Shown here: positions 1 to 29,527 of the stretch, one piece after another
How positions within the stretch are numbered: position 1 is the stretch's first letter
How the letters are laid out: each line of letters begins with the position of its first letter
Program-made: the position numbers and the translations under genes
Notes under the pieces: generated by a model
What the model was told of the DNA's origin: nothing
Database searches by the model: none
What the model saw: only the letters and a program-made list of their open reading frames with translations
NCBI RefSeq assembly: GCF_913055905.1
Contig: NZ_CAJXLB010000007.1
Reading direction: 5' to 3' (one strand)
Source: an uncultured Winogradskyella sp.
GTDB taxonomy: Bacteria > Bacteroidota > Bacteroidia > Flavobacteriales > Flavobacteriaceae
DNA: 64,000 bases

Positions 1-267
1 GAACTTAGAAGGACTGATAAGACACTTGACGGATATGTAATTGACAGCTTGACATACCAGTACAATCGACATGAAATTCGACTTCTGAATGAGAACTCAG
101 CAAACTCTTTAATAGTGAAATTCGACATTTACATTGACGAAATTGAATCGAGCTTAATCATTGGATATTATGACTATGAAGTGAATTTTCAAGGCGAGTT
201 CATAGACGAATTCTTAGTCTTCCAAAATGACATGGAAAATAAAAAAACGCTTGCCAACAATGGCTAA
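1..267 (+). CDS. Hypothetical cassette protein, 5'-truncated by the window edge
   Basis: Frame is open from position 1 (ELRRTDKTLDG...) to TAA at 265-267, which lies inside the repeat (tail KKTLANNG*). Confidence 0.7.
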   Translation, partial: ELRRTDKTLDGYVIDSLTYQYNRHEIRLLNENSANSLIVKFDIYIDEIESSLIIGYYDYEVNFQGEFIDEFLVFQNDMENKKTLANNG

Positions 268-383
268 GAAAACATGCGGGCTAACAGAGTAAAATGAAAT
301 TTAGTACACCAAATAAAACTTGTCCCTCGGTTGACAAATACGTGTTCCAAAACCCGCACGTTTCTTAGCCGTGGCCGTTATGG
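252..383 (+). repeat. attC-like site 1
   Basis: TGCCAAC at 252-258; arms GGCTAAGAAAACATGCGGG (262-280) and CCCGCACGTTTCTTAGCC (353-370); GTTATGG at 377-383. Confidence 0.85.
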
Positions 384-408
384 GCAAGGCTAAAACGACC
401 GAAAAACA

Positions 409-1014
409 ATGAAACTTAAAAACATATTTACAGACAATAAGACAAAAGTTTTTGTGGTGACTAACCAAGACGAAGAAGATGAACTTAATTGGACTATTGA
501 ACCGACTGACTTTGACCTTTTGCCAGAAGAAGAGAATGTTTATTACGTAAAAGCATATCAAGTTTCTGCTGACGGCACTTACGATTGTTACCTTGGTATA
601 ATGACACCTGAAAGAATTGCTGAGACTGTTGTAAAGAAAGAACCAAGCGGACAAATCGTTGCAGAAAGTATATACGAACAAGAACAAACTATAATTCCAG
701 CAGTTGCTTCTGACTGTTTTGGTGACTATGAATTGTTTTACGCAAAAGAAAATCCTCAAATTGGAATTGACGTTTTAAAAGACGGACTAACAAAAGCGTC
801 AAACAAGAACATTGTTGCAGAAGACTTGGGATATGTTTTGAGGGACGAGAAAAGAATTGAAGAAGCAATTGACGCATTTAAAATTAGTGAGCAGACTGGA
901 CCTTCTTCAGAGTATGTTTTCCTTGAACTTTCAAGACTATATCGCGAAATTGGACAAAAAGAAAATGAACTGAAATACAAAGAAAAATTTAAGGTGAGTG
1001 GCGGAATTGAATAG
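409..1014 (+). CDS. Cassette protein with a C-terminal TPR-like helical region
   Basis: 201 aa; AEDLGYVLRDEKRIEEAIDAFKIS...YVFLELSRLYREIG pattern resembles a TPR. Confidence 0.7.
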   Translation: MKLKNIFTDNKTKVFVVTNQDEEDELNWTIEPTDFDLLPEEENVYYVKAYQVSADGTYDCYLGIMTPERIAETVVKKEPSGQIVAESIYEQEQTIIPAVASDCFGDYELFYAKENPQIGIDVLKDGLTKASNKNIVAEDLGYVLRDEKRIEEAIDAFKISEQTGPSSEYVFLELSRLYREIGQKENELKYKEKFKVSGGIE

Positions 1015-1027
1015 AAGAAAAAGCCCA

Positions 1028-1162
1028 GCCCATAACAAAGCATATAGCTTATGGCGGGTAAACGGTTATCAGCAAGGTTTTCGCTTCGTAGCCAGCTTTG
1101 GTTTCGGTGGACAGGAAAGTGCTTCGAAACCGCCACAAGCCATATGCAAACCGTTACCCAAC
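1028..1162 (+). repeat. attC-like site 2
   Basis: GCCCATAAC at 1028-1036; arms GCATATAGCTTATGGCGG (1040-1057) and CCGCCACAAGCCATATGC (1130-1147); GTTACCCAAC at 1153-1162. Confidence 0.88.
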
Positions 1163-1178
1163 ATTTGACCAAACAATA

Positions 1179-1625
1179 ATGAGAAGGAAAAGACTACAAC
1201 ATAATGCTGACATTTTTTGCGATATGTTCGCTGGTTGGAAAATAGTGAACGATATGAAATCTTTGGTTGAATTGGAAAGTGGAATCATTGAATTTGATTT
1301 CCTGAATAGAACTCAAAAACTCAACAATGCGGAATCGAAAACTGACTTTAATATGTTTTATGAAATTTCGGAATGGTTTGCGGACGATTTAAAAAAGCAC
1401 AATATCGAAACGGAATTTATTAAAGAGGCAAAAGTAAAGGCGGAATTTAAAGTTGAATTTACTGCTGGAAAAAAGAAGTCTCGAACGAAAGGAATTACTG
1501 AACTATATCTGAATTTAAACTCTTGGATTTTAACAGACGAAAAAGAATATAAATCGGAAAAAGAAGAAACTCAAGAATTTCACCATATTGAACGGAAAGA
1601 AAAAACGTTGGGTAACAATGTATAA
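1179..1625 (+). CDS. Hypothetical cassette protein (148 aa)
   Basis: ATG at 1179 is preferred because the ORF-track start at 1098 lies inside site 2; the stop lies inside site 3 (tail KTLGNNV*). Confidence 0.75.
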   Translation: MRRKRLQHNADIFCDMFAGWKIVNDMKSLVELESGIIEFDFLNRTQKLNNAESKTDFNMFYEISEWFADDLKKHNIETEFIKEAKVKAEFKVEFTAGKKKSRTKGITELYLNLNSWILTDEKEYKSEKEETQEFHHIERKEKTLGNNV

Positions 1626-1745
1626 CCGCAATTACGGCGGATTCGACTACGTCCGAATCCACTCGGAATTGCTAACGTCTGTGTCAAACCGAAAATAATC
1701 GCTAATTTAACCCGCAACTGACGGTTATACTAGACCGTTACCTGC
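1607..1745 (+). repeat. attC-like site 3 (family A)
   Basis: GTTGGGTAAC...GTTACCTGC; 67 nt (1613-1679) are identical to 2271-2337. Confidence 0.9.
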
Positions 1746-1767
1746 AAGTTAAACCGACATTCTGCAA

Positions 1768-2259
1768 ATGAAAATCATCTTTCAAGTCATATTATTTCTA
1801 TTCTCATCTAGCTTCTGCTTTGCTCAAGAAATGACAAAGCGTGAATTAAAAAATATGATAAAGGAATCGAAATTGGAATATCGGAAAAATGGATATTCTT
1901 ATTTTTCTAAAATACTGACAAATAATAAAGACAGTCTTTTTTTCAAAGCTGACCGAATTGAAATTTACTCAAGTAATGCCATAACATCTGAAAAGGGAAT
2001 CTGCCGAACGGTTGAATTAAAATTCTTGAAGAACAAAAAAGTGAATTTTATTGATTGCCAAACTTGCACTGAACCATCTTCGTGTTACGTTACAACTGAT
2101 AAAAATGTTTACAAATACTATATTCAAGAAATTGAAAACGAATTATTTATTCTTTTCAAAAACAAATACTACGAAATGAATTTTAAAGTAATTTCTGCAA
2201 AAGAAAATGAACTGAATCACAGAAAATATCGTGAAATAAAATTAGAGCGAATTGAATAA
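1768..2259 (+). CDS. Secreted hypothetical cassette protein
   Basis: 163 aa; signal peptide-like N-terminus (MKIIFQVILFLFSSSFCFA-QE). Confidence 0.75.
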   Translation: MKIIFQVILFLFSSSFCFAQEMTKRELKNMIKESKLEYRKNGYSYFSKILTNNKDSLFFKADRIEIYSSNAITSEKGICRTVELKFLKNKKVNFIDCQTCTEPSSCYVTTDKNVYKYYIQEIENELFILFKNKYYEMNFKVISAKENELNHRKYREIKLERIE

Positions 2260-2265
2260 AAACCA

Positions 2266-2403
2266 GCAGGTAACAATGTATAACCGCAATTACGGCGGAT
2301 TCGACTACGTCCGAATCCACTCGGAATTGCTAACGTCAGTGCTAAACCGAAAAACATTAACTTTAATCCCGTAACTGACGGTTATACTAGACCGTTAGCA
2401 CCA
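2266..2403 (+). repeat. attC-like site 4 (family A)
   Basis: GCAGGTAAC; arms GTATAACCGCAATTACGG (2278-2295) and CCGTAACTGACGGTTATAC (2369-2387); GTTAGCACCA at 2394-2403. Confidence 0.9.
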
Positions 2404-2405
2404 AT

Positions 2406-3164
2406 TTGAAAAAACTAAAAACCTTGAAAAAAATATCATTACTGCTCATAGCTATTACATTTCTATATTCCTGTAAAAAGTTGGAAAAAGAAACAACCAG
2501 AAATCAATCTGAAACAAAAATTGAGAAAAAATTATATGCAGAAACTGAAAGTAAAATAAAAAAATATAGAGAAGATTCTCAAAAGTATTGGGATAAAAAT
2601 GATAGCGAAAATGCTCTGAAATATGGCGACTCAATTAAGTCAATTATTCTAAACAGTTACATCAACGATTATGAATTTAAAACTGTTGAGAACACTATCT
2701 ACAATACGATTGAAAGAAAAAAGCCTCTTTTCTTACAAGTTACGGCATCTTGGTGTGCACCTTGTAAATTTGAAGTTCCTGCATTAAATAAAATAGTTGA
2801 GAAATATAGTGACAGGGTAGATTTTGTTCTTCTATTTTGGGACACTCAATCGGATTTAGAAAAGCTTGCGCCTGATTATAATAAGAATATATATCTAATT
2901 CCTTCTCAAGAACAACAATCTGAAGCGACCACAATTGATATTTCTGGATTTAGACACATTATGGGTTTTCCAACAAATTATTTGATTACAAGAGAAAATA
3001 AAATAATTAACTTTTCCCAAGGAGCAATGATTCCGACAACCTACACAGACCAAAACGGAAAAGAAATTACAATTACGAAAGAAGTTGCCGACCAAAAGAA
3101 TTATGAAAGACTTGAAAAAGAAATCAAAGAATTAATTGAAAAAACTGGTGCTAACAATGTATAA
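2406..3164 (+). CDS. Lipoprotein with a TlpA/thioredoxin-like domain (cassette)
   Basis: Lipobox-like LYS-C; WCAPC redox motif; TTG start at 2406 or 2424; stop lies inside site 5 (tail KTGANNV*). Confidence 0.8.
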   Translation: MKKLKTLKKISLLLIAITFLYSCKKLEKETTRNQSETKIEKKLYAETESKIKKYREDSQKYWDKNDSENALKYGDSIKSIILNSYINDYEFKTVENTIYNTIERKKPLFLQVTASWCAPCKFEVPALNKIVEKYSDRVDFVLLFWDTQSDLEKLAPDYNKNIYLIPSQEQQSEATTIDISGFRHIMGFPTNYLITRENKIINFSQGAMIPTTYTDQNGKEITITKEVADQKNYERLEKEIKELIEKTGANNV

Positions 3165-3307
3165 CCGCAATTACGGTGGATTCGACTACGTCCGAATCCA
3201 CCCCGCCTTGCCAGGCGTGGCAGGTCGGAATTGCTAACGTCAGTTCTAAACCGAAAATTAACGCATATTAACCCGTAACTGACGGTTATACGAGACCGTT
3301 GGCTGTA
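3146..3307 (+). repeat. attC-like site 5 (family A, with a 23-nt hairpin insertion)
   Basis: TGGTGCTAAC...GTTGGCTGTA; near-identical to sites 3 and 4 apart from the extra 3202-3224. Confidence 0.9.
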
Positions 3308-3309
3308 AT

Positions 3310-3837
3310 ATGAAAAAAATCGCGATTATAATATTAACATTGAATTTCAACCTTGGATTTGGACAAGTTGAAATTCCTTTTTTTGAACAAATCGCTTTTG
3401 ATTTTTACAAGGACAGTCTATTGACAAAATTCCCTGTAGAAAAACGAATAAAAATTCCAAAATATACGACTGACTTTCACTTCTCGTCTTATAAATTTCA
3501 AGTTAACGAATGTCTGACTGGAGAATTATTGACAGAGGGAAAAGAATTGGAAATTTTCGGGATTTATGCTCTAGAACAAATGGATTTTGATTCGCCAACT
3601 CACAAAATGAATTATGAAAACTTGGATAAAAAACAGTTTCGGATTAAAAAATCAAGTAGCAATCTGAATTTAAGAATTTCCCAACCCTATCATAAAAAAG
3701 ATTACTTTGAGAATTTTTACGTAATTATATCGGAAAATTATAAAAGAAAAAATATCACATACTATTTATTAATAGACAAAAACGGAAAGATAAAAAATTG
3801 GTGCAGAAAAGAATCGGAAATGATAATAATCCATTAG
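3310..3837 (+). CDS. Secreted hypothetical cassette protein
   Basis: 175 aa; signal peptide-like N-terminus ending GFG-QV. Confidence 0.75.
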   Translation: MKKIAIIILTLNFNLGFGQVEIPFFEQIAFDFYKDSLLTKFPVEKRIKIPKYTTDFHFSSYKFQVNECLTGELLTEGKELEIFGIYALEQMDFDSPTHKMNYENLDKKQFRIKKSSSNLNLRISQPYHKKDYFENFYVIISENYKRKNITYYLLIDKNGKIKNWCRKESEMIIIH

Positions 3838-3853
3838 TGATTAAAAAAAATAC

Positions 3854-4041
3854 TACAGCCAACACCGGCTATAGTTCATTGCTACTCGCCTACTTCAATT
3901 TAAAATTTTTCTTACTTTTAATACTTAAACATAAAGAGGAATGATTTCGTTACGCTGTTTGCTTCGCACGTGTGGAAAAAACTAGCAACGCTTCGCAAAC
4001 CAACAACCGCAACGAAACCATAGCCCAAACCGTTAGCAAAC
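3854..4041 (+). repeat. attC-like site 6 (family B)
   Basis: TACAGCCAAC; arms GGCTATAGTTCATTGC (3867-3882) and GCAACGAAACCATAGCC (4009-4025); GTTAGCAAAC at 4032-4041. Confidence 0.88.
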
Positions 4042-4046
4042 ATATC

Positions 4047-4661
4047 ATGCAAAACCCAAAGCTACTTTACCTTATTCTAATAATAATTCTAAGCTCTTGT
4101 TCTAAAGAAAAAAAGTCTGTGCCAACTAAAGAATTCAAAACAAAACAAATTGACACTACCAAACTTTACCATAGAACAAAAGTTATCTATGAAAAGGATA
4201 GTCTGAACTATAAGGAAATTGAAGTCTACGTTTCAAAAGAAAATGACACCATTGTGAATCAATGGAAAAAAATTGAAAACGGAAAGATAGACAGTTCTCA
4301 AAGCAAGTTTTATAACCTAAAACTGATAGGTAAGAAAAGTGATTCTATTTTGACTGGACAAATAAGTTTTTATTCACCTGGCGACAGTATTCCAGATTCA
4401 AAAATATATACGAGATTCGTGACTTTCACTTTTCTTCAACCAGAAAAAGATTCTTTAGTTTTTAAAGAAATTAAGTCCGACAAAAATATAATTGACTTTA
4501 AATATCGTATAATTGACAGCTTAGGTTTTATGGGATTTATATCTGACTTAAGAGCCACCAAAATTGATAGCTTACCCGAACAATCTCTTGTAAATAGAAA
4601 CTACTTTGCTGTGGATACGGATATTTGGACTAACAACACATTTGTAGAAATTGTAAAATAA
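4047..4661 (+). CDS. Hypothetical lipoprotein (cassette)
   Basis: ATG at 4047 (MQNPKLLYLILIIILSS-C); the ORF-track start at 3972 lies inside site 6. Confidence 0.75.
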   Translation: MQNPKLLYLILIIILSSCSKEKKSVPTKEFKTKQIDTTKLYHRTKVIYEKDSLNYKEIEVYVSKENDTIVNQWKKIENGKIDSSQSKFYNLKLIGKKSDSILTGQISFYSPGDSIPDSKIYTRFVTFTFLQPEKDSLVFKEIKSDKNIIDFKYRIIDSLGFMGFISDLRATKIDSLPEQSLVNRNYFAVDTDIWTNNTFVEIVK

Positions 4662-4667
4662 AAATAC

Positions 4668-4853
4668 GTTTGCTAACACCGGCTATAGTTCATTGCTACT
4701 CTCCTGCTTCAATTTAAAATATTTCCTACATTTAGTACCTAAACATATAAGCAATTATTTCGTTTTGCTATTTGCTTCGCACGTGAGGAGAAAACTAGCA
4801 ACGCTTCGCAAACCGCAAACCGCAACGTAATCATACGCAAACAGTTGGTAACA
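4668..4853 (+). repeat. attC-like site 7 (family B)
   Basis: GTTTGCTAACACCGGCTATAGTTCATTGCTACTC shares its arm with site 6; right core GTTGGTAACA at 4844-4853. Confidence 0.85.
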
Positions 4854-4902
4854 ATACCTATGGCACGCATCCACCGCACTACGTACTTGTGTGTCTGCTT
4901 AA

Positions 4903-5059
4903 TGTTCCTAACAGGCACACAGTACGACTGTATATTCGTTAACGTGCCATCGGCACTATACCCAACTATGGATATAACGAATATACCTCTAATGGCTACT
5001 ATTACTAATTACAGCAAGCTGTCAACGTAACTCGCCATATCCGTGTGCCTGTTACCTGC
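4903..5059 (+). repeat. attC-like site 8, atypical, closing a gene-less unit
   Basis: Perfect 12-bp IR TAACAGGCACAC (4909-4920) / GTGTGCCTGTTA (5043-5054); inner perfect 12-bp IR 4930-4941 / 4975-4986; right core GTTACCTGC at 5051-5059. Confidence 0.6.
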
Positions 5060-5142
5060 AATATCCCAAGAGAGTATGGCATCGTTATTAAAGTAATAAC
5101 AAAACTAATGACTAATATATTTGGTGACATCAAAAATCTCTT

Positions 5143-5168
5143 TAAATTTGCAACCGAATGAACGTTCA
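5143..5168 (+). promoter_or_regulatory. Bacteroidota -7 box plus candidate TetR operator
   Basis: TAAATTTG at 5143-5150 fits TAnnTTTG (a second copy TATATTTG at 5116-5123); perfect palindrome TGAACGTTCA at 5159-5168, 6 bp before the tetR ATG. Confidence 0.6.
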
Positions 5169-5174
5169 CTTTGT

Positions 5175-5744
5175 ATGACGAAAAAAGAAAAAATATTAAA
5201 AATAGCGCTGGAATTAATTGTAAATCAAGGAATCCAAGAAACACCAATGTCGCAAATCTCAAAAGTTTCAGGTGTAGCTATGGGGACAATATATCATCAT
5301 TTTAAAAGCAAAAACGAAATAGTAAACGCCATTTATATCTACCTGAAAAAAGAAATGGGAAATGCGCTTTTAGAAGAAAAAGATAGTTCTAAAGATTACA
5401 AAGCACTCTTCTACCAATTTTGGAACAACCTATTTGAGTTTTACCAAAAGAACGAAATGGCCTTTAAGTTTTTACAAAGATTTGTGCAATCGCCACTTAT
5501 TTCTGATGAAACAAAAGTTGAAGGACTTGAACATTATAAACCAATCATTTCATTTTTTGAAGAGGGATTACGAAACAACATTCTAAAACCTATTGACATT
5601 GTACTATTAACAGAAACAATTCACGGAAATATAGTTTCATTAGTGCAAATTCACTTCCAGCAAACAATAGTAGTAAATAAAAAAATCATTGACCAAGCTA
5701 TTGATATGTCTTGGAGCAGTGTTGCAAACAAAAATTATGAATAA
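5175..5744 (+). CDS. TetR/AcrR family transcriptional regulator
   Basis: N-terminal HTH KEKILKIALELIVNQGIQETPMSQISKVSGVAMGTIYHHFKSK; ATG at 5175. Confidence 0.92.
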   Translation: MTKKEKILKIALELIVNQGIQETPMSQISKVSGVAMGTIYHHFKSKNEIVNAIYIYLKKEMGNALLEEKDSSKDYKALFYQFWNNLFEFYQKNEMAFKFLQRFVQSPLISDETKVEGLEHYKPIISFFEEGLRNNILKPIDIVLLTETIHGNIVSLVQIHFQQTIVVNKKIIDQAIDMSWSSVANKNYE

Positions 5745-6774
5745 AACAGTATTAGTAACAGGGGGAACGGGCTATATCGGTTCTTGGGTAACCAAAATGC
5801 TCTTAGAAAAAGGATATACGGTAAGATTAGCCGTGAGAGACAATAAGAACACAGCAAAGTACCAACACCTTATCGAGTTAGAGAATAGTTCTGATGGTAA
5901 TTTGGAATTCTGGAATGCTAATTTACTGTCAGAAGGTGATTATGACGAAATGGCGGAAGGCTGTTCTTCTATAATCCATATGGCATCCCCTTTCACACTG
6001 CGATTTAAAGATGCTCAAAAAGAGTTGATTGACCCTGCCCTGAAGGGAACAAGAAATGTGCTGAATGCTGCTACAAAATCATCTTCAGTTAAGAAAGTAG
6101 TTTTAACCTCGAGTGTTGCTGCTGTTCACGGAGATAATATCGACATGAAAGAGAAAGGCTTATCTGAATTTACTGAAGCGCATTTTAATGATTCAAGCAG
6201 TGCATCTCACCAACCGTATTCCTTTTCTAAAGTAATCGCAGAAAAAGAGGCTTGGAAAATCAGCGAAAGTCAAGATCAATGGAAATTAGTCGTAATTAAC
6301 CCATCTTTTGTTATGGGACCCTCTTTAACCCAATCTTCTAACTCTGAAAGTTTGAATTTTATGAAAGAAATGCTTTCTGGAAAATACTATTTGGGAGCAC
6401 CAAACTTAATGTTTGGGTTTGTAGATGTTAGAGATGTTGCCAAAGCACACCTATTAGCCTTAGAAGACGAAACGGCCGAAGGACGACACATATTGGCAGA
6501 AAGAACAACGTCAGTTTTTGATTTTTCCCGATTAATCAAAAAAAGTTACGGCAATAAATACAAATTACCATTGATGCAATCACCAAAAATAATGCTGTAT
6601 TTAGTAGGCTGGATGTTTGGTTTAGGAACCAAATTTATACGCCGGAATGTGGGCTATGATATAAAGTTAAATACGTCAAAGAGTAAGGAAAAATTAGGTT
6701 TAACTTACACCAATTTGCAGAATACGATAGAAGATATGGTGTCGCAAATGCAGGAAAATAAAATCATATCCTAG
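5737..6774 (+). CDS. NAD-dependent epimerase/dehydratase (extended SDR, dihydroflavonol reductase-like)
   Basis: VLVTGGTGYIG, HMASP, TSSVAAV and YSFSK motifs; ATG at 5737 overlaps the tetR stop. Confidence 0.9.
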   Translation: MNKTVLVTGGTGYIGSWVTKMLLEKGYTVRLAVRDNKNTAKYQHLIELENSSDGNLEFWNANLLSEGDYDEMAEGCSSIIHMASPFTLRFKDAQKELIDPALKGTRNVLNAATKSSSVKKVVLTSSVAAVHGDNIDMKEKGLSEFTEAHFNDSSSASHQPYSFSKVIAEKEAWKISESQDQWKLVVINPSFVMGPSLTQSSNSESLNFMKEMLSGKYYLGAPNLMFGFVDVRDVAKAHLLALEDETAEGRHILAERTTSVFDFSRLIKKSYGNKYKLPLMQSPKIMLYLVGWMFGLGTKFIRRNVGYDIKLNTSKSKEKLGLTYTNLQNTIEDMVSQMQENKIIS

Positions 6775-6835
6775 CACAAAAACGTATCTCGGAAGTAGAT
6801 TATAATCAATTATAAACTGAACAAATTTATACCAA

Positions 6836-8245
6836 ATGAAAAAAACATTACTTACATCAATCCTATTTACATTAATTGTTTATTGCGGTTTTGGACAAAC
6901 AACCATTCCTGACAACACAAACATTAGTGGTAGCTGGACTGTAGCTAATTCGCCCTATATCATTGAGGGTAGAGCCATAGTTCCAAATGGTCAAACGCTA
7001 ACCATCGAGCCTGGCGTAGAAATTAGACTTCAATCAAGTACATCACCAACGCCATCGTGGTTTGATTATGGCTCTGGGAATGTTGGAGTTATAAGAGTTC
7101 AGGGAGAGATAATTGCAAACGGAACTACTACAAACCCTATTCTATTTACAAGGAATAATACTGGTTTTTGGGGTACAATTTTAATAGATGAAAACGCAGC
7201 CAATACTTCCTCATTTTCAAATTGTATCATTGAATATGCAAAGGAAAGCAGAAATGTAACCGGAATCACTTCACCTGTCTCATTTAATGGTGGAATCAGT
7301 GTTTTTAATAGCACAGTTTCTATCAACCAAAATGAATTTAGAAACAACAACATCAATGGGTTGTATATAAGAGATGTGGCGAATTCTTTTGATTTCTCAA
7401 ATAATACTTTTTACGATAACGGCTCAAACGGAAGCGTAATCGAACAATCAACCGTAAACGCAATTAACAATACCTACTTTAACAATTCAATTAGCGCGAC
7501 AGGGCAAGTTTCGGCTATTCGCTCGACTAACTCAACCGTCTATCTCGTTGGTAATTTGATTTACAACAATGACGATTTTGGGATTTTTACTTCTGGAGGA
7601 GGGAATCATTATGTTGTAAACAATACTATTTTTGGCAACAGTCAAGGCGTAAGAGTAGAAACTGGGGCAAATACGTTTATACATAGTTCCATTATTCAGA
7701 ACAATACATTGAACTTTTCGACCAGCAATGTTGGCGGAGCTAATGTAGAAATGCAGTATAGTTTAACCAATGACGCTACGTTTCCTACGAATGTTACAAA
7801 TGTTTCAAGTAATTTGTTGAACTCAGATGCGCTATTTACCAATTCTGGAGCAAATGATTTCAGTTTACAAAGTACATCGCCTGCGATTGATGCAGGCAAT
7901 CCAAGTTCATCAGGTTTAAATATAACTGTAACAGATATTTTAGGAAACCCTAGAATAGATAATACAATTATTGATATTGGAGCCATAGAGTTTCAACAGG
8001 CCCTTAGTGTAAATAACATTAATGAATTAGCGGATTTAAATATTTACCCCAATCCAACAAAAGATTTTATTTATGTAACATCAAATGAATCGTTAACAAT
8101 TGAAGTTTTTTCAATTGACGGAAAATCAATTGGAAATTACAATGCAAAAATCATTGACTTGTCAAAAGTTAAAGCGGGCATTTATGTTCTGAAAGTTGAA
8201 GATTCAACTGGAAAAAGTATCATAAGAAAGATAGTAAAGAAATAG
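6836..8245 (+). CDS. T9SS-secreted parallel beta-helix protein with choice-of-anchor Q-like region
   Basis: Signal peptide; Asn-rich beta-helix repeats; FSLQSTSPAIDAG...DIGAIEFQ; type A CTD IYPNPTKD...KIVKK. Confidence 0.85.
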   Translation: MKKTLLTSILFTLIVYCGFGQTTIPDNTNISGSWTVANSPYIIEGRAIVPNGQTLTIEPGVEIRLQSSTSPTPSWFDYGSGNVGVIRVQGEIIANGTTTNPILFTRNNTGFWGTILIDENAANTSSFSNCIIEYAKESRNVTGITSPVSFNGGISVFNSTVSINQNEFRNNNINGLYIRDVANSFDFSNNTFYDNGSNGSVIEQSTVNAINNTYFNNSISATGQVSAIRSTNSTVYLVGNLIYNNDDFGIFTSGGGNHYVVNNTIFGNSQGVRVETGANTFIHSSIIQNNTLNFSTSNVGGANVEMQYSLTNDATFPTNVTNVSSNLLNSDALFTNSGANDFSLQSTSPAIDAGNPSSSGLNITVTDILGNPRIDNTIIDIGAIEFQQALSVNNINELADLNIYPNPTKDFIYVTSNESLTIEVFSIDGKSIGNYNAKIIDLSKVKAGIYVLKVEDSTGKSIIRKIVKK

Positions 8246-8251
8246 AAGCCA

Positions 8252-8273
8252 GCAGGTAACTATGGCAATAATT
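8252..8273 (+). repeat. Truncated attC-like site 9 (left end only)
   Basis: CCAGCAGGTAAC is identical to the site 4 left end; AACTATGGCAATAATT resembles a left arm (13/16 to 11150-11165); no right arm found. Confidence 0.6.
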
Positions 8274-8282
8274 ATGAGAACG

Positions 8283-10424
8283 ATGAGAAAATATCTATTT
8301 CTAGTAATACTAATATCCATTCTAGCTTGCAAAGAGGATAAAACATCTGATTCTGAATTAACAAATATTGACTATACTGAATTTGTCAATCCTTTTATTG
8401 GTACTGACGGAACAGGACACACGTTTCCAGGTCCAAGCAGGCCTTTTGCCATGGTGCAACCCGGACCAGACAATACCGACCAGGGTTGGGATTATACTAG
8501 TGGGTATCAACTCAAAGACTCTACCATCATAGGATTTTCCAATACCAGAGCGAGCGGAACAGGTATTAGTGAATTTGGAGATGTATTACTTTTCCCATTT
8601 ACAAAAGAATCAGATAGCCTTTCAGCCAAAAAAACAGACGAAACCGCTGACGTGGGTTACTACAAGGTAGATTTAAATAATGGTGTCCAGGCTGAACTCA
8701 CCTCAACAGACCGTGTTGGTTTTCACAGATATACTTACCCAAGCCAGAAAGCTAAATTATTGGTTAACCTACAACATGGTTTACGTTTTATTACAGACAG
8801 TTTGGTTTTGGATAGCGACATTACAATTGAAGCAGATAAAAAAACCATTTCCGGCTATTGCCATACCAGCAACTGGGTAGAGCGGAAGTATTTTTTTACC
8901 CTCACCTTCGACCAGACTTATGATTCCATCAGACAATTGCCTCTTGGACCGAAAGAAAACGCACCAAAAAGTATTTTAGATTTCACCCTTAAGAACAACA
9001 TTTTAAAAGCTAAAGTCGCTTTATCTTCTGTAAGCGTCGATGGCGCAAAAAAGAACCTTAACTCAGAACTCAACCACTGGGATTTTGAACAAGTGAGACA
9101 AGAAAGCAAAGAGGTTTGGAATACGTATTTGAGTAAAATTGATATTGAAGCAGAAGACAAGCAAAAAACCATTTTCTACACGTCTATGTACCATTTGTTT
9201 TTACAACCCAGCAATATAGCAGATGTGGATGGCAGGTACAGAGGTGCTGATGATCAAATTGCTACAGCTAAAAATGGAGAATACTACTCTACGCTTTCAC
9301 TTTGGGATACGTACCGAGCTGCGCATCCCTTGTATACTATTTTGGTACCGGAGCGTGTTGACGGCTTTGTAAATACATTTCTCGCCCATCATAAAGCACA
9401 AGGCTATTTACCCATCTGGACCGCCTGGGGACAGGAAAACCACTGTATGATTGGCAACCATTCCATACCAGTCATTGTGGATGCTTACAACAAAGGGTTT
9501 GATGGGTTTGACTACCATGAAGCCATGACGGCAATGGTAGAATCATCTACAGAAAATCACCTGAATTCAGATTGGGACCTTTATAACAAATACGGCTATT
9601 ACCCTTTTGATTATCTGGACAACGAAGCCGTTTCCAGAACGCTGGAAAGCGGATTTGACGATTATGCCATTTCCATTATGGCAAAAGATATGGGCATGGA
9701 TAGCATTGCCGGCGTATTTGCCAAAAGAGCAAAATATTATGAAAATTTATTTGACCCGGAAACGGGCTTAATGCGCGGTAAAGATTCCAAAGGACAGTTT
9801 AGAACGCCTTTTAATCCTCTGGATGCCACATCGCCGATGAATAATCCCGGAGATTACACCGAAGCAAATGCCTGGCAGTACACCTGGACGACGTCGCATT
9901 ATGATGTGGAAAATTACACAAAATTGCTCGGTGGCAAAGACCAATTCACAGAACAATTGAATACGTTCTTTTCTATTTCAGGTGATGGCGACAATAAGCA
10001 TTTGGGACAAGAAGGCTTAATAGGACAATATGCCCACGGCAATGAACCTAGCCATCACATTGCTTATTTATATGCCTACTCAAACACACCAGAAAGAGGA
10101 AATGAACTTATAACTGAAATTTACAACAAGTTCTACGATGAAACACCTGAAGGCATCACCGGAAATGATGACTGCGGACAGATGAGTGCCTGGTATATAT
10201 TCTCAACCTTAGGCTTTTATCCGGTAAATCCAGCAAATACAGAATATGTTTTAGGAATTCCGCAAGTAGAAAAAGCTACTATAAATTTGCAAAACGGCAA
10301 GACGTTTAAAATTAGAAAAACTAAACAGTTAGAAGATTTATCTATTCAACTGAATAATAAAGAAATTGAAAGGATTATTAAACACCAAGATGTTATAGGT
10401 GGAGGAACTTTAGAATTTAAATAA
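8283..10424 (+). CDS. GH92 family alpha-mannosidase, lipoprotein
   Basis: VNPFIGT, GHTFPG, SLWDTYR, YTEANAWQY, GQYAHGNEPSHH and GNDDCGQMSAWY motifs; lipobox ILA-C; ATG at 8283 preferred. Confidence 0.93.
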   Translation: MRKYLFLVILISILACKEDKTSDSELTNIDYTEFVNPFIGTDGTGHTFPGPSRPFAMVQPGPDNTDQGWDYTSGYQLKDSTIIGFSNTRASGTGISEFGDVLLFPFTKESDSLSAKKTDETADVGYYKVDLNNGVQAELTSTDRVGFHRYTYPSQKAKLLVNLQHGLRFITDSLVLDSDITIEADKKTISGYCHTSNWVERKYFFTLTFDQTYDSIRQLPLGPKENAPKSILDFTLKNNILKAKVALSSVSVDGAKKNLNSELNHWDFEQVRQESKEVWNTYLSKIDIEAEDKQKTIFYTSMYHLFLQPSNIADVDGRYRGADDQIATAKNGEYYSTLSLWDTYRAAHPLYTILVPERVDGFVNTFLAHHKAQGYLPIWTAWGQENHCMIGNHSIPVIVDAYNKGFDGFDYHEAMTAMVESSTENHLNSDWDLYNKYGYYPFDYLDNEAVSRTLESGFDDYAISIMAKDMGMDSIAGVFAKRAKYYENLFDPETGLMRGKDSKGQFRTPFNPLDATSPMNNPGDYTEANAWQYTWTTSHYDVENYTKLLGGKDQFTEQLNTFFSISGDGDNKHLGQEGLIGQYAHGNEPSHHIAYLYAYSNTPERGNELITEIYNKFYDETPEGITGNDDCGQMSAWYIFSTLGFYPVNPANTEYVLGIPQVEKATINLQNGKTFKIRKTKQLEDLSIQLNNKEIERIIKHQDVIGGGTLEFK

Positions 10425-10428
10425 CTAA

Positions 10429-10561
10429 TGTCAACAGAAGCTATACCTAATACGGGCGAAAGTCCTAATATGAAGGCAATTAGATTAATCAAAATTTTCG
10501 GTAAACGGACAGTGAAGTGTATTGAAATCTCGCACTACGCATAGATGAGACCGTTGTAAAC
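10429..10561 (+). repeat. Degenerate attC-like site 10
   Basis: TGTCAAC at 10429-10435; arms CTATACCTAATACGGG and CTCGCACTACGCATAG; ACC-GTTGTAAAC at 10553-10561. Confidence 0.7.
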
Positions 10562-10565
10562 AATT

Positions 10566-11141
10566 ATGAAAAACTTAATTCTAATAATTATTTCATTAAC
10601 ATTCTTCAACTCTTTTAGCCAAGAGTCAAAAGATTTCATAAAATCAGAGGACTATTATTTAACGGAAATTGACCCACTAACAATGAAAAAATATTGGGAA
10701 AATTTTCCAACTGAAAATGTATTGAAGCCCATTCCTATTTATTTAAAAGATAAAAACGGAAAAACACTTTATGAAATTAAAATATCAGAGTTGGAATTTT
10801 ATAGCGGAACTTCAATTGAGGTTTTGGATATTGATAATTTGAAGGACATTGAACAAATAATACATTTGGAATCCGGTTACGATGCTTGTTGCACTAGTTA
10901 TTATTCGACTTATTTGCTCAAAGCAAAAGATGGAAAATTAATTAAACTCCCCGAAATTGATAATTTGCATTGTGACGGACCAGAACCAAGATTTGAATAT
11001 AGATTCCCAAATCAAAAATTCGGACATGAAAACCAAATCTTAATGACTAAATCATTCCTAAACGACGATTACAAAGTTGAAAAGGTTGAAATACAAAAAA
11101 CATATTCTTGGAACGGAAAAACATTTGAATTAAAAAAATAA
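10566..11141 (+). CDS. Secreted hypothetical cassette protein
   Basis: 191 aa; signal peptide ending SFS-QE; start 13 bp after the GTT. Confidence 0.75.
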   Translation: MKNLILIIISLTFFNSFSQESKDFIKSEDYYLTEIDPLTMKKYWENFPTENVLKPIPIYLKDKNGKTLYEIKISELEFYSGTSIEVLDIDNLKDIEQIIHLESGYDACCTSYYSTYLLKAKDGKLIKLPEIDNLHCDGPEPRFEYRFPNQKFGHENQILMTKSFLNDDYKVEKVEIQKTYSWNGKTFELKK

Positions 11142-11142
11142 C

Positions 11143-11360
11143 TATTCGCAACAATAGCTATAATTGTTAGCACCAGTTCGCACTGCGTGCTCGTGTCATT
11201 GCTACTCCCCTGCTTCAATTTAAAATTTTTCCTACATTTAGCACCTAAACATAAAAAGGAAGGATTTCGTTTCGCTGTTTGCTTCGCACGTGTGGAAAAA
11301 TCTAGCAACGCTTTGCAAATCGCAAACCGCATAGTAATCATTGACTAGACCGCTGTGCCT
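11143..11360 (+). repeat. Degenerate attC-like site 11 (family B; core GTT mutated to GCT)
   Basis: Body aligns with sites 6 and 7 (CATTGCTACTC...GCTTCGCACGTGTGGAAAAA...CTAGCAACGCT); 31-nt insertion at 11166-11196; right core GCTGTGCCT at 11352-11360. Confidence 0.75.
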
Positions 11361-11364
11361 CATT

Positions 11365-11399
11365 AAAAAACAGAGTCCTTACAAAACGTAAGAACTCTG
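11365..11399 (-). terminator. Intrinsic terminator for the minus-strand gene 11411-11824
   Basis: Stem CAGAGTCCTTAC / GTAAGAACTCTG (11/12) next to A6 at 11365-11370, which is a U-tract on the minus strand. Confidence 0.7.
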
Positions 11400-11410
11400 C
11401 TTGAAAAAAA

Positions 11411-11824
11411 TTACTCTTTAGGCAGAAGCCTCCCACTAACAGGTTCAAGGTCGTACATTACAAAAGTTTCTATTATACTTTCCATATCCTCGTTTTCACC
11501 GTGGTCTTCTTTTCCTTCTTTGGTTTCAAGGAAATTATAGAGGGTTTCTTTTTTATCGTAAGTTGCCCAAACAACAACTGAATTTCTTCCCTCATCGACA
11601 CTAACCTGATAAGCTAGAAGACCATCAGATTTTTTGTCCATTTTCAAAGTCGGAGCTTTTGCAATCCTTACTAAATCATCAAGTTTACCAGGTTTTGCAG
11701 TTGATACTGACATAAAGGTATACGTTGGGCTTTTCATCGTTTTTTTCATTTTTTGATTATTTTTTTGCTTACAAGTGAATGTCAATATTAGTATTGATAA
11801 TAAAACTATTTTATTCAATTCCAT
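11411..11824 (-). CDS. Lipoprotein with an ABM-like (dimeric alpha-beta barrel) domain
   Basis: Lipobox-like LTFT-C; TFMSVSTAKPGKLDDL...YQVSVDEGRNSVVVWATY pattern. Confidence 0.6.
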   Translation of the reverse strand: MELNKIVLLSILILTFTCKQKNNQKMKKTMKSPTYTFMSVSTAKPGKLDDLVRIAKAPTLKMDKKSDGLLAYQVSVDEGRNSVVVWATYDKKETLYNFLETKEGKEDHGENEDMESIIETFVMYDLEPVSGRLLPKE

Positions 11825-11856
11825 TGTTATTAATTTATTTTATTATGGTTTTGATG

Positions 11857-11904
11857 CAAATATAAAATATTATTTCAAATTCATAATATTATTTTGTAAT
11901 TTTG
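11857..11904. promoter_or_regulatory. Divergent -7 promoter boxes
   Basis: CAAATATA at 11857-11864 (TATATTTG on the minus strand) and TAATTTTG at 11897-11904 (plus strand). Confidence 0.5.
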
Positions 11905-11929
11905 TTCATTATAATACTAAATTGACTTA

Positions 11930-12481
11930 ATGAAGCTTACATTACTTAAAGATATAATTGAACTAATAGAGGACTTTCAAACTTCAAACGACTCTGAAAA
12001 AATAGAAGATTTCACAATCTGGCTCAACAACAAATTGTTTTCGTTAAATCATAGTGAAGAGCACTCAACTCACGATGAACTATTGATTGCTTTTAAAATA
12101 ATGTTGCTAAATAAAGAACTGAAAAAACAGACAAAAAACGTTTTATCGAAATCAAATGTGTCGTCCATTGATGAATACAGCTTTTTATTACACTTGAATT
12201 ACCAAGAAAGCTTCAGAAAAATGGAGTTAGTGGATTTGCACAATCTTGAAGCACCAACGGGAATAGAAATTATAAAAAGACTTCTAAAAAATAGGCTGAT
12301 TGACGAATTTCCAGATAAAGAAGACAAAAGGGCAAAAAGAATAAAAATAACAAAAAAAGGAATTGCGGAGTTGGAATCAATTAAACCAAGAATTGATTCA
12401 ACTTTTATGAAATTGACAGAACCTCTTAACCTGAATGAAAAAATTCAAATTAGTGGCCTTCTAGATAAACTGATACATTAA
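11930..12481 (+). CDS. MarR family winged-helix regulator
   Basis: PTGIEIIKRLLKNRLIDEFPDKEDKRAKRIKITKKG wing motif. Confidence 0.85.
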   Translation: MKLTLLKDIIELIEDFQTSNDSEKIEDFTIWLNNKLFSLNHSEEHSTHDELLIAFKIMLLNKELKKQTKNVLSKSNVSSIDEYSFLLHLNYQESFRKMELVDLHNLEAPTGIEIIKRLLKNRLIDEFPDKEDKRAKRIKITKKGIAELESIKPRIDSTFMKLTEPLNLNEKIQISGLLDKLIH

Positions 12482-12490
12482 GAAATAACA

Positions 12491-12499
12491 AGGCACAAC
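12491..12499 (+). repeat. Remnant left core of the last cassette site
   Basis: AGGCACAAC 10 bp after the MarR stop; its reverse complement GTTGTGCCT matches 11352-11360 at 8/9. Confidence 0.55.
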
Positions 12500-12709
12500 T
12501 AAGAACTGAATTAAAAAAGCACCTTTTTCTTCGAAAAATACATCCTGTGATTTAAATTACACATCATCCTTTAACTCTGGAAAAATCTCGTTTTAGTTTA
12601 TAGCGTGGTTAAAACGAGGTTATAACCATATTATAGCAATGCAAACCTGTTTAGTAAGTACCTAAGATTTGCTCAATAATAGAACGGAAAGACTAAAGGC
12701 CACAAAGAT

Positions 12710-14098
12710 TTATTTCCCGATGCAAAAATTAGCAAATATATTCCCCAAGAGGTCATCGGTCGTAATCTCGCCGGTAATCTCTCCAAAGTGATGAAGAGCC
12801 TGTCGTATATCTATCGCCAACAAATCGCCTGAAAGTCCAGTTTCCAATCCTTCCTTAACCTTTTGGATTTCTTCAAAGGCCTTAATCAGAGCATCATAGT
12901 GCCTAGTATTGGTCACAATAGTGTCATTGTTCCGTAAGGCGCCAGTATTGATTAAATTTAAAAGAGTCTCGGTAAGTTGTTCTATACCAAACCCGGTCTT
13001 AGCAGAGAGCAGCAGGACATCAGGAATGGTTGTATTAATCTCAGCAAGCTGCATATCGTCTAATACATCTATCTTATTGGCAATAACCAATAAAGGCTTT
13101 TGAGGATATTTGTTCCTAATTTTTTCAATCTCAATTCTTACGCTTTCCAAATCAGCAATTTGTTTGGCAGCATCAAATAGGAATATGGTGACTTGCGACT
13201 GCTCGATTTTTTCAAACGTCTTTTTTATGCCTATGGACTCAACAACATCTTCGGTCTCTCGTATACCTGCCGTATCTATAAAGCGAAATCCTATTCCTCC
13301 TATAGAAATCTCGTCTTCAATGGTATCACGTGTAGTACCAGCAATTTCCGATACAATAGCACGCTCATCATTGAGCAAGGCATTGAGCAACGTAGATTTT
13401 CCCACATTAGGCTCACCCACAATAGCGACAGGAATGCCGTTCTTTATCACATTGCCCACAGCAAACGAATCAATAAGACGCTTAAGCACAAAACTAATGC
13501 GGTCAATGAGTTCCTTAAATTGGGTTCTGTCTGCAAATTCTACATCCTCTTCAGCAAAATCAAGTTCCAACTCAATGAGGGAAGCAAAATTCATAAGCTC
13601 TTCCCTAAGCCTAGAGATTTCAGAAGAAAAGCCACCACGCATCTGTTGCATGGCAATTTGATGTGCCGCCTCGTTATCACTAGAAATTAAGTCGGCAACA
13701 GCTTCTGCTTGGCTCAAATCCAATTTTCCATTTAAAAAAGCTCGTAGCGTAAATTCTCCAGGCGATGCCATCCTGCAACCCTTTCGTAAAAAAAGCTGTA
13801 TGATTTCTTGCTGTATATAGGTTGAACCATGGCACGATATTTCCACAACATCTTCACCTGTGTAAGATTTCGGATTTTTAAATAGCGATACCAATACCTC
13901 ATCCAAGGTTTTCATACCGTCTACTATATGCCCCAAATGTATGGTATGCGTAGCTTGCTGTTTTAAATCTTTTCCACTAACCGATTTAAAGTTTTCGGAC
14001 ACAAGGGCAATAGCAGCCGGGCCGGACAGTCTAATAACTGCTATGGCGCCGCTTCCTGATGGTGTCGCTAAGGCTATTATGGTATCTTGATGAGACAT
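12710..14098 (-). CDS. mnmE: tRNA modification GTPase MnmE (TrmE)
   Basis: DTIIALATPSG, GEPNVGKSTL, GTTRD, DTAGIR and C-terminal FANFCIGK. Confidence 0.98.
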   Translation of the reverse strand: MSHQDTIIALATPSGSGAIAVIRLSGPAAIALVSENFKSVSGKDLKQQATHTIHLGHIVDGMKTLDEVLVSLFKNPKSYTGEDVVEISCHGSTYIQQEIIQLFLRKGCRMASPGEFTLRAFLNGKLDLSQAEAVADLISSDNEAAHQIAMQQMRGGFSSEISRLREELMNFASLIELELDFAEEDVEFADRTQFKELIDRISFVLKRLIDSFAVGNVIKNGIPVAIVGEPNVGKSTLLNALLNDERAIVSEIAGTTRDTIEDEISIGGIGFRFIDTAGIRETEDVVESIGIKKTFEKIEQSQVTIFLFDAAKQIADLESVRIEIEKIRNKYPQKPLLVIANKIDVLDDMQLAEINTTIPDVLLLSAKTGFGIEQLTETLLNLINTGALRNNDTIVTNTRHYDALIKAFEEIQKVKEGLETGLSGDLLAIDIRQALHHFGEITGEITTDDLLGNIFANFCIGK

Positions 14099-14117
14099 CT
14101 AATTCAATTATACTCTG

Positions 14118-14216
14118 CAAAAATAAAGTATTTTCATAGGAACACTGTAATAGAACCATAGAAACAGGGCTTGTTAAGAATTTAGTCGAAAAAATAAATC
14201 AAGGACCGTATATTTG
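14118..14216. promoter_or_regulatory. Divergent -7 boxes for mnmE and the TlpA gene
   Basis: CAAAAATA at 14118-14125 (TATTTTTG on the minus strand); TATATTTG at 14209-14216 (plus strand). Confidence 0.55.
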
Positions 14217-14250
14217 TGTCACAAAAGTTAGTAACAAAAAAGGGATAACA

Positions 14251-18551: not shown

Positions 18552-18575
18552 AGACCGCAATTTACACCAAAGATA

Positions 18576-27290: not shown

Positions 27291-27980
27291 TTCATTTTTG
27301 AGAGACCAAAAACGAACCAACCTGCCTGCCGTAAGGCAGGAAAATTTAGGTTGCAGTTTGTTTCAGACGTTGTCGGAATGAAGTGTTTAAGCATTGGGTT
27401 TGGGATTCTTCGATTCCGATTGCATCGGAATGCTCAGAATGACAGTGGCATGATGTGATGCTGAAACGCCCTCAGCATGACGGTTAGAGTGTGAGATTTT
27501 TGGCTTATACCTTCGCTGAAGCTTCGGTGGACGAGTCGCTCAGAATGACAAATGAAGGTCTCTGGTTGTTTTATGTTCATTTTGTTATATTCTTTTTTCC
27601 ATTGATGAAAAAAGAAACAAAAAAATCTAGGCTGCAGTTTCAACTCTTGAAAACCCAGCAACCCGTCTTTATCGTGCGCATGGCAATCACTTCGTTAGGC
27701 CATGCTCCGCTGCCCCACGCGAAGCCGTGTTTTGGTTTTGCTACGACTTGAAACTAAGGCCGTGGATTCCTGCTGCGCAGGAATTTGGTTTTTAAGGGTT
27801 GGGTGTGTGAAATTCTTCGATTCCGAATGCGTCGGAATGCTAGGAATAACCGTTAGATGATGCAATGCTGAAACGAGTTGAGCATGACGGTTTGTTTCAT
27901 GGTATTTCCTTACTTTTTTTTCATCGCCAAAAAAAAGTAATAAAAAAAGGCGAGGCTGGGTTTTTGGTTTCAGACATAAG
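27291..27980. repeat. Composite cluster of REP-like palindromes (left of the permease gene)
   Basis: Several hairpin types repeated two or three times: T-run/A-run hairpins, TTCC...GGAAT, GATTCT...CAGAATGAC and ATGCTGAAAC...AGCATGACG. Confidence 0.8.
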
Positions 27981-29203: not shown

Positions 29204-29396
29204 GACATTAATATCTGTTTTAAATTGAGACCCGATTGTTGCTATCGCAACACAAACTATCTCATAAAATATGAAATTGTCAGCTAAGGGAAGTTCCCAG
29301 GTGCTTTTGCTTGCTTACTGACTACTGCATTTAAAGCTTTGCGGTAAGATGTCAATACCGTTATTTGGTGTGTTAGCCCGACTGTGGCGAGGCGAG

Positions 29397-29527
29397 GTTT
29401 TGGTTTTGCTATGACTTGAAACAGAGGCCGGTTTCTTTCCGACGTTGTCGGAATTGGGTTTGGTTAAGGTTGATGCGTTGGGTTGTGGGATTCTCCGCTT
29501 CCACCTTCGCTGACGCGCAGAATGACA
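29397..29527. repeat. Composite REP-like cluster (right of the permease gene)
   Basis: 29398-29422 matches 27730-27754 at 24/25; TTCCGACGTTGTCGGAA (29437-29453) matches 27362-27378 at 16/17. Confidence 0.75.

Follow-up and report, generated by a model that had tools for sequence, protein, structure and literature searches.

The stretch of DNA analysed here (the window, 64,000 nucleotides of contig NZ_CAJXLB010000007.1 from an uncultured Winogradskyella sp.) opens with a succession of small genes separated by long imperfect palindromes. Very probably, positions 1-12,500 of the window and at least 6 kb of DNA upstream of it form the distal part of a chromosomal integron-type cassette array, in which a chain of offset complementarities was generated by the splitting of one half-site, R', each time a cassette was inserted. 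We have high confidence that the array is of the integron type, with cross-over at the GTT of R', and moderate confidence, from related genomes and from gene association, that it is served by a Xer-like recombinase without the insertion specific to integron integrases (IntI). The system is probably a new integron variant.

According to the map of open reading frames (ORFs) and to Pfam scans, array ORFs are short, co-directional and mostly without Pfam match, and the array stops at the core gene mnmE. Each ORF is followed by an imperfect palindrome of 120-210 nt, which starts with ...N7-AAC (the R'' box) and ends with GTT-N7... (R'). Like attC sites, these AAC...GTT palindromes have inner L''/L' repeats, and sites with 8-9/9 complementary L boxes number at least eight in the window and five in the upstream stretch. 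The plan of a cassette is accordingly TT plus seven variable bases, usually one promoter-less ORF, seven complementary bases plus AAC, the 120-210-nt hairpin, and a final ...ACC-G. A single co-directional ORF with a site at its 3' end is the rule for most units, the exceptions being one unit without ORF, one fused unit with four genes and the terminal unit, which has a reverse ORF.

The first-pass annotation had noticed that each GTT-start is the reverse complement of the AAC-end of the next site. Recomputing every listed pair over window positions 1-14,500 reproduced the coordinates and scores of all ten exactly: 10/10 for start/box pairs 1153/1607, 2394/3146, 3298/3854 and 4032/4668; 9/9 for 377/1028, 1737/2266 and 5051/8252; 8/10 for 4844/4903; 7/10 for 10553/11143; and 8/9 for 11352/12491, where the 'GTT' reads GCT. 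The chain is interrupted from 8260 to 10553. Scoring the seven bases after each GTT against the seven before each AAC, with the invariant GTT/AAC set aside, 61 of the 70 variable positions match between a cassette's start and the box at its own far end. Shuffled start/box pairings match at 27.2 positions on average (standard deviation 5.2, maximum 55), and none of 200,000 permutations attains 61. Between the two ends of a single site, by contrast, no more than 22 of 63 variable positions agree. In clean pairs, complementarity extends 6-7 bases past the GTT and then ends. The offset complementarity is genuine and not a product of chance. Two caveats apply to individual pairs: the 5051/8252 pairing is not unique, as the cassette starting at 1737 has an identical start and 2266 an identical box, and the boxes at 8252 and 12491 are orphans, with no hairpin behind either.

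When each cassette was circularized in silico, as the annotation had proposed, the junction (site plus the cassette's own start, DNA parameters) folded with a mean free energy of -26.8 kcal/mol, compared with -22.0 kcal/mol for sites as they stand in the array and -22.2 kcal/mol for sites joined to the starts of other cassettes. The predicted circle junctions thus have an advantage of about 4.8 kcal/mol in stability over native and mismatched ones.

The same rule is found well outside the window. Using a 21-nt motif of one site family (family A), we retrieved 120 loci; their species, over 80 in number, belong almost all to the Flavobacteriaceae, the remainder being a few Lewinellaceae, Saprospiraceae and Algoriphagus. 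A site detector (AAC, 3 nt, 9-nt L'', ..., 9-nt L', 5-6 nt, GTT) recognized 362 sites, spread over 104 of the 120 loci, versus 41 in shuffled DNA. For the 227 cassettes bounded by two detected sites, own-cassette pairing averages 5.06/7 and reaches at least 6/7 in 145, while same-site pairing averages 2.75 and permuted pairing 2.46 ± 0.09. In 256 cassettes from about 100 other Flavobacteriaceae genomes, R-box positions 4-10 are Watson-Crick pairs in about 75% of cases, with all four pair types represented; position 11 of the R stem is so paired in 5% only, showing a conserved A opposite C, and positions 12-13 are paired again. Because of this covariation, the first bases of a cassette and its own far end must have been selected to pair. 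Cassettes also tend to start with GTT-N7-ATTTG and to end with AAC-N7-AAC (256 cassettes; profile from 113 sites). The A/C at position 11 and these terminal motifs may reflect recombinase contact or a translation signal.

The offset pattern alone fits two kinds of cut, one at R', by which a site would travel with its upstream ORF, and one at R'', by which it would travel with its downstream ORF. A genome of another genus decides between them. Polaribacter uvawellassae (locus L124, 5256-5916) carries the cassette 1738-2394 with 95.9% identity over 661 nt, and the homology spans exactly from GTTACCTGC to ...GACCGTT, i.e. GTT, ORF and whole site body. Flanking sequences in Polaribacter are unrelated to the window, and the upstream site there belongs to another family. 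A cut at R'' was rejected, since the homology takes in the body of the downstream site and not that of the upstream one. These limits imply that ORF and downstream site move together, with joints within the GTTs. The annotation had further proposed that each unit was once a circle whose two ends formed one hairpin site, opened at the GTT, and the Polaribacter copy, which ends at both GTTs, supports this. As to the cassette boundaries that the annotation had listed, 1738-2394 is confirmed by the same homology, whereas the scheme fails at 8260, where a site has been lost and two cassettes are fused, and 11353-12499 is without site body.

Other metagenomes provide further boundaries. The cassette 4033-4844 is preceded by different DNA in two of them (loose ends X2 and X4), with the break at 4031/4032, and contigs break at 4031/4032, 1155 and 8263. 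Among the other assemblies of this organism, a single contig (L215, JGI 3300000931) deviates, by a 159-nt deletion (901-1059) running from inside ORF 409-1014 into the next site; the deletion does not lie at site boundaries and may be a misassembly. Comparison between genomes shows that the cassettes have been mobile. Between Winogradskyella litorisediminis (L085, 5500-5640) and window 11143-11354, ORF, start and R'' are shared and the site bodies unrelated. Site bodies seem to be replaced or homogenized within a host, as in the species-specific attC families of chromosomal integrons.

The array is not an assembly artefact, because the identical sequence was assembled independently in three JGI samples and one SRA run. 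One might still suppose that the hairpins are non-mobile intergenic elements, such as terminators or repeats resembling repetitive extragenic palindromes, and that the matches arose by chance or in assembly. Their location after ORFs is indeed that of terminators, and assemblies do break at hairpins. Given the permutation result, the cross-genus cassette that breaks at GTTs, the recurrence of the rule in about 100 other genomes and the identity of at least five independent assemblies, this explanation can practically be dismissed.

An integron-type exchange would account for the chain as follows. In a free circle, the last G of the cassette would join its first TT (predicted junction ...GACCG|TTACCTGC...), restoring a 10-bp R box (GTT plus seven bases paired with seven bases plus AAC) at the base of the hairpin. 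The circular cassette would fold or extrude this hairpin, and one strand, most likely the folded bottom one, would be cut and exchanged by a tyrosine recombinase within the GTT/AAC triplet of R'. With an attI-like site or the site of another cassette as partner, the product would be a linear cassette in which R' is split: every array site would then carry the R' bases of the next cassette, its own R' bases lying at the 5' end of its cassette, hence the offset chain. The cassettes do run from TT... to ...G with their own R' bases at the 5' end, the position of the cross-over inside GTT being beyond the resolution of the comparison; a cut at G/TT is suggested by analogy with integrons. Since cleavage by tyrosine recombinases takes place at the 5' side of the spacer, on the strand leaving the bound arm, a joint at R' would imply bottom-strand cleavage at AA|C, as in integrons. 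We infer the circular intermediate, the exact cut, the strand and the enzyme from these patterns; for the enzyme, the probable candidate by association in relatives is a 376-aa Xer-like recombinase encoded upstream of an attI-like site. By the standard definition, an integron cassette is a circle opened at the GTT, and the principle is therefore not new; the cross-over point of integrons was determined by Hall, Brookes and Stokes in 1991, as cited in PMC5027507.

Site geometry is distinctive. In all confident sites, AAC is followed by a spacer of 3 nt and GTT is preceded by one of 5-6 nt, a fixed asymmetry that was also recovered by an unbiased scan of perfect L boxes, in which only the (3,6)/(6,3) class occurs (57+57) and no symmetric class. 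In folds of the bottom strand, a 3-nt and a 1-nt bulge lie on the R'-L' arm. This strand folds as well as the top strand or better, which is suggestive only as to the strand used. This geometry, with 3/6 spacers and extra bases on the R'-L' arm, is not that of canonical attC sites, in which both arms have a spacer of about 5-6 nt and the extrahelical bases lie near L'' (PMC5027507).

A second alternative is that the units are Xer/dif-type modules, comparable to the pdif modules of Acinetobacter plasmids and moved by Xer-like recombinases of the host at double-stranded sites of the 28-bp type, with the hairpins as incidental terminators. The recombinase of relatives does score about equally against XerD/XerC/XerA models and against the integron-integrase model, and its best PDB folds include archaeal XerA. 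The sites found here are, however, not short (~28 bp) double-stranded XerC/XerD-type sites and not alternating 11-6-11 dif-like sequences; they are imperfect palindromes of 120-210 nt in direct orientation. Seven R-box positions covary between start and far end, which is sensible only if R'' and R' pair in one strand or in a cruciform, and L boxes covary between site families as well. We therefore regard Xer/dif-type modules as very unlikely.

A recombination platform was identified in relatives of the array. A 376-aa tyrosine recombinase gene lies upstream of their arrays, co-directional with the cassettes, and in 13 loci an attI-like site occurs 35-100 nt after its stop, consisting of an inverted repeat of 8-10 bp, a 3-5-nt spacer and GTT (e.g., L081 2914-2957 and L205 11132-11175; one such site reads GGAATAAACAC TATA TAGTGTTTATTCC, spacer CAT (3 nt), GTT). 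The first cassette begins at the GTT of the attI-like site, so that in these relatives, as in integrons, an attI-like site adjoins the recombinase gene and the first cassette is joined there. The bases following this GTT complement the R'' of the first site, with 10/10 matches in L081, L030, L111 and L097, and 9/10 in L062; L205 shows the same. In five loci chosen by the recombinase alone (L205-L209), an attI-like site follows directly after the stop in all five. The L208 contig ends 140 nt after the gene, and the four loci with continuing contigs all have small co-directional ORFs with sites that keep the chain rule. In the L207 array, two IS3-family insertions (14074-15296 and 17506-18728) interrupt cassettes and leave the chain rule intact.

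The recombinase has conserved catalytic residues (R-K-H-R-H-Y) and a contiguous PF00589 match. It scores 188-215 bits against TIGR02249 (integron integrase), below the cut-off of 265 and with the match in two pieces; for NCBIfam NF040815 ('XerA / integron integrase'), the cut-off is slightly exceeded. Where IntI has 62 residues, it has 19 in the comparison with VchIntIA (PDB 2a3v); the IntI-specific insertion is therefore absent, and the relatives' enzyme is not an integrase with the IntI-specific domain. Likewise, an AlphaFold model (pLDDT 80.5) shows no extra helix at the insertion position, and a small alpha/beta domain is added at the N-terminus, where the extra region measures about 105 aa. 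The best PDB folds are archaeal XerA and VchIntIA. The family is large, the best 120 matches being proteins of about 376 aa (351-388) from Flavobacteriaceae, and NCBI names some members 'site-specific tyrosine recombinase/integron integrase'. The IntI-specific domain is considered diagnostic of integron integrases and indispensable to their function, yet the recombinase without it is the only one consistently associated with the present arrays.

In 11 loci (L205-L209, at about 9523-9930, L081, L008, L125, L059, L030 and L126), a divergent gene lies 70-90 nt upstream of the recombinase gene and encodes a Zn-ribbon-like protein of about 125 aa, with the N-terminal motif CxxC...GRSDKxFCDxxCK and no match to a Pfam or NCBIfam family. 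This protein may regulate the platform or assist it as an accessory factor. As to expression, the co-directional recombinase gene could supply read-through transcription of the cassettes.

The simplest alternative is that we are dealing with an ordinary integron remnant, either a CALIN (a cluster of attC sites without integrase, in IntegronFinder's terminology) or the far end of a sedentary integron, with a canonical IntI encoded elsewhere and the Xer-like gene present incidentally. In its favour, the array behaves canonically in every respect tested (cassette definition, R''/R' boxes, GTT cross-over), and the window has no visible recombinase; its source contig begins inside a site. An incidental Xer-like gene agrees poorly with the 13 loci in which it is followed, 35-100 nt on, by a GTT cross-over site with the chain rule obeyed downstream, or with the recombinase-chosen loci, of which 5/5 have the attI-like site and 4/4 with enough downstream DNA have an array. 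Site geometry also differs, with 3/6 spacers instead of the canonical 5-6/5-6 and extra bases on the R'-L' arm instead of near L'' (PMC5027507). In addition, the 2022 IntegronFinder survey reports integrons as nearly absent from Bacteroidetes: only In0 elements (integrase, no cassettes) had been found in an earlier survey, and one complete integron, in Salinibacter, is reported (IntegronFinder 2.0, PMC9024848). An ordinary remnant thus seems unlikely, if less so than the other two alternatives.

Returning to an integron-type array with a Xer-like enzyme, comparison with known systems shows what is shared and what is not. As in sedentary chromosomal integrons such as the Vibrio cholerae superintegron with its repeats (VCR), the arrays are long, co-directional and made mostly of single-ORF cassettes without assigned function, the sites are imperfect palindromes (...AAC/GTT...) with families shared within an array, and the GTT of R' is the place of cross-over. 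Both include cassettes for toxin-antitoxin systems and for defence. Cassettes of L205 (12027-12679 and 16558-17418) encode a HigB/helix-turn-helix toxin-antitoxin pair and a TIR-domain protein, and the Type IIG enzyme of the upstream stretch is described below. Unlike in sedentary integrons, the R box is 10 bp long (GTT plus seven bases) instead of following the 7-bp GTTRRRY consensus, spacers are unequal (3 and 5-6 nt) where canonical sites have 5-6 nt twice, extra bases lie on the R'-L' arm, and the relatives' recombinase is without the IntI insertion, has an additional N-terminal region of about 105 aa and is co-directional with the cassettes. In 'inverted integrase' integrons (Treponema denticola type), the integrase is co-directional with the cassettes and attI lies at its 3' side, as here, but the integrases known from them keep the IntI-specific additional domain and act on canonical attC sites, neither of which is found in the present system. 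The window resembles a CALIN in being an array with no integrase within reach, except that this absence probably stems from the assembly, the contig starting inside a site, and that relatives show a complete platform. Finally, length and fold of the recombinase, its contiguous PF00589 match and its NF040815 score above cut-off are those of Xer proteins (XerC/D, archaeal XerA). Xer recombinases act on short double-stranded dif sites for dimer resolution, whereas here the gene, together with an attI-like site, stands at the head of an array whose sites are long hairpins.

Several observations weigh against our interpretation. No recombinase gene was detected either within the window or in the 6-kb stretch before it (Pfam on ten window ORFs of 275-425 aa; tblastn with the relatives' recombinase). 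The Polaribacter comparison places the cut only within a shared (C)GTT. Cassette order is the same in all independent assemblies of the organism, so that recent activity is not indicated. All 23 runs carrying array DNA are represented as Logan contigs, in which the apparent 'joints' are short unitigs bridging similar sites and do not constitute evidence for circles. The rule is broken at 8260, at 11352/12491 and in the MmeI-type cassette of the upstream stretch, and sites 4668-4846, 4903-5053 and ~10430-10555 are degenerate or atypical. Such irregular units fit what is expected of the distal, partly decaying end of an array.

Two of them can be traced by comparison. At 8249-8266, the window joins an orphan R'' (CCAGCAGGTAAC) to the start codon of a GH92 gene through TAT, as AAC-TAT-GGCAATAATT. 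Run X2 has complete site ends ahead of the GH92 start (...GAACGT|TGGCAATAATTATG and ...CCGTT|GCCAATAATTA), and other metagenome contigs likewise have a complete site there, ending ...GAACGT|TGGCAATAATT. In the window, a whole hairpin site has been lost almost precisely, which fused two cassettes at 8260. For the cassette 10554-11352, the W. litorisediminis homologue (L085, 79% identity) pairs 10/10 (GTTGTAAATA versus TATTTACAAC), so that the score of 7/10 at 10553/11143 in the window reflects decay. The hairpin at 4903-5053 is unlike all other sites: AAC and GTT run straight into a perfect 15-bp stem (TAACAGGCACAC...GTGTGCCTGTTA) without spacers. BLAST searches against the 200 fetched loci revealed no relatives of 4845-5060, of 10425-10560, of site 1028-1160 or of the last unit.

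One cassette start, GTTACCTGCAA(G), is present at window 1737 and 5051, L001 1749 and L062 6490, on cassettes unrelated to one another and also immediately behind the attI-like site of Algoriphagus. Two copies of the box matching it, CCAGCAGGTAAC, exist in the window, at 2263-2274 and 8249-8260. The pair may represent a favoured or ancestral R box.

The individual units, all on the + strand, are as follows. The metagenome contig to which the window belongs is 134.6 kb long and begins 6,072 bp further upstream, inside a site. The upstream stretch (L001) carries five more cassettes, four of which keep the chain at 10/10; the exception is a 3.6-kb cassette (1749-5313) for a 1071-aa MmeI-like Type IIG restriction-modification enzyme (PADLOC, 1729 bits), whose start GTTACCTGCAAGCTG and box CCAGCTTACAAC match only when about 4 nt are skipped. 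Window positions 1-377 are the 3' part of a cassette begun at L001 5959, with a partial ORF (1-267) and a site at 249-379 (R'' GCTTGCCAAC at 249-258, GTT at 377-379); its start in L001, GTTGGCAAGC, pairs 10/10 with the window box 249-258. The next cassette (378-1153) has an ORF of 201 aa without Pfam match (409-1014) and a site at 1027-1155, composed of R'' (1027-1036), a 3-nt spacer, L'' GCATATAGC, L' GCCATATGC, a 5-nt spacer and GTT at 1153; like that at 249-379, this site belongs to no family.

Three cassettes with family-A sites follow. Cassette 1154-1737 encodes a protein of 148 aa without Pfam match (1179-1625; site 1607-1739), 1738-2394 a protein of 163 aa with a signal-peptide-like N-terminus (1768-2259; site 2265-2396) and 2395-3298 a thioredoxin-like protein of 252 aa (2406-3164), with an extra internal hairpin in its site (3146-3300). 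The next two have family-B sites: cassette 3299-4032 contains an ORF of 175 aa (3310-3837; site 3854-4034), and 4033-4844 one of 204 aa, lipoprotein-like (4047-4661), with a degenerate site (4668-4846). A 207-bp unit without ORF (4845-5051) comprises the atypical hairpin 4903-5053 and has a start matching its box at 8/10. The two fused cassettes, between which the site is lost, occupy 5052-10553. The first part encodes a TetR regulator (5175-5744), an NAD-epimerase (5737-6774) and a beta-helix/type IX secretion system protein (6836-8245), followed by the orphan R'' (8252-8260); the second encodes GH92 (8262-10424), followed by the degenerate site at ~10430-10555. Cassette 10554-11352 has an ORF of 191 aa (10566-11141) and a long family-B site (11143-11354), with GCT instead of GTT at R'. 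The terminal unit (11353-12499) contains an ORF of 137 aa on the minus strand (11411-11824) and a MarR/winged helix-turn-helix ORF (11930-12481), and ends in an orphan R''-like box, AGGCACAAC (12491-12499), with no hairpin after it.

PADLOC assigned none of nine window cassette proteins to a defence family. Rfam at gathering thresholds gave no match over the whole window, sites included, and a tRNA scan found none. G+C content is mostly 0.32-0.36 in the array, with 0.39 in the 8-10 kb bin holding GH92, and about 0.36-0.47 (mostly about 0.40) in the core beyond. The first core gene, mnmE (12710-14098, minus strand), marks the end of the array. Its product is 90% identical to a Winogradskyella aurantia protein, and the best named matches are all from Winogradskyella, which identifies the host as an uncultured member of this genus. 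The position of the array next to mnmE is not conserved in the genus: W. aurantia and W. sp. HB-48 are syntenic up to the mnmE stop and have no sites there. A recombinase-profile scan of metagenome contigs gave no match from this organism's samples, most contigs ending just after the gene.

Beyond the array, hairpin-rich intergenic repeats occur at 27300-27900 and 29387-29430 (e.g., TTCGATTCCGATTGCATCGGAATGC...GCTGAAAC...CAGCATGACGGTT). Two copies, 80% alike and 407 nt apart, are present, the repeats flank an ArsP-type permease gene (27983-29203, minus strand), and no Rfam match was obtained at E<=0.1 over 27.2-29.7 kb. Tandem PPK2 polyphosphate kinase genes are located at 41169-42856, a 125-nt stretch being 75% alike between the two.

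Offset complementarity in itself adds nothing new on integrons, for which it is classical evidence of the cross-over point and of what a cassette is. For annotation, it fixes the cassette boundaries in the window and explains the assembly breaks at this locus. Its weight lies in the setting, as the rule is found with clean covariation in about 100 Flavobacteriaceae, in a phylum reported to be almost free of integrons; we found no description of flavobacterial attC arrays in the open-access literature, which does not prove novelty. Whether marine Flavobacteriaceae, with some Saprospiria and Cytophagia, share a widespread integron analogue (Zn-ribbon-like gene, 376-aa Xer-like recombinase, attI-like hairpin plus GTT, and arrays with the opposite bulge asymmetry) is, in our judgement, evenly balanced. 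If the enzyme does recombine folded sites, capture of cassettes through single-stranded hairpins would need no IntI insertion, and integron-type systems would have arisen more than once from Xer recombinases, or the flavobacterial system would be a surviving early form. Should experiments confirm this, the system would offer a natural test of the features required for hairpin-site recombination, would bear on the evolution of integrons from Xer recombinases, and would reveal that abundant marine bacteria harbour a large reservoir of mobile cassettes, possibly missed by current integron finders.

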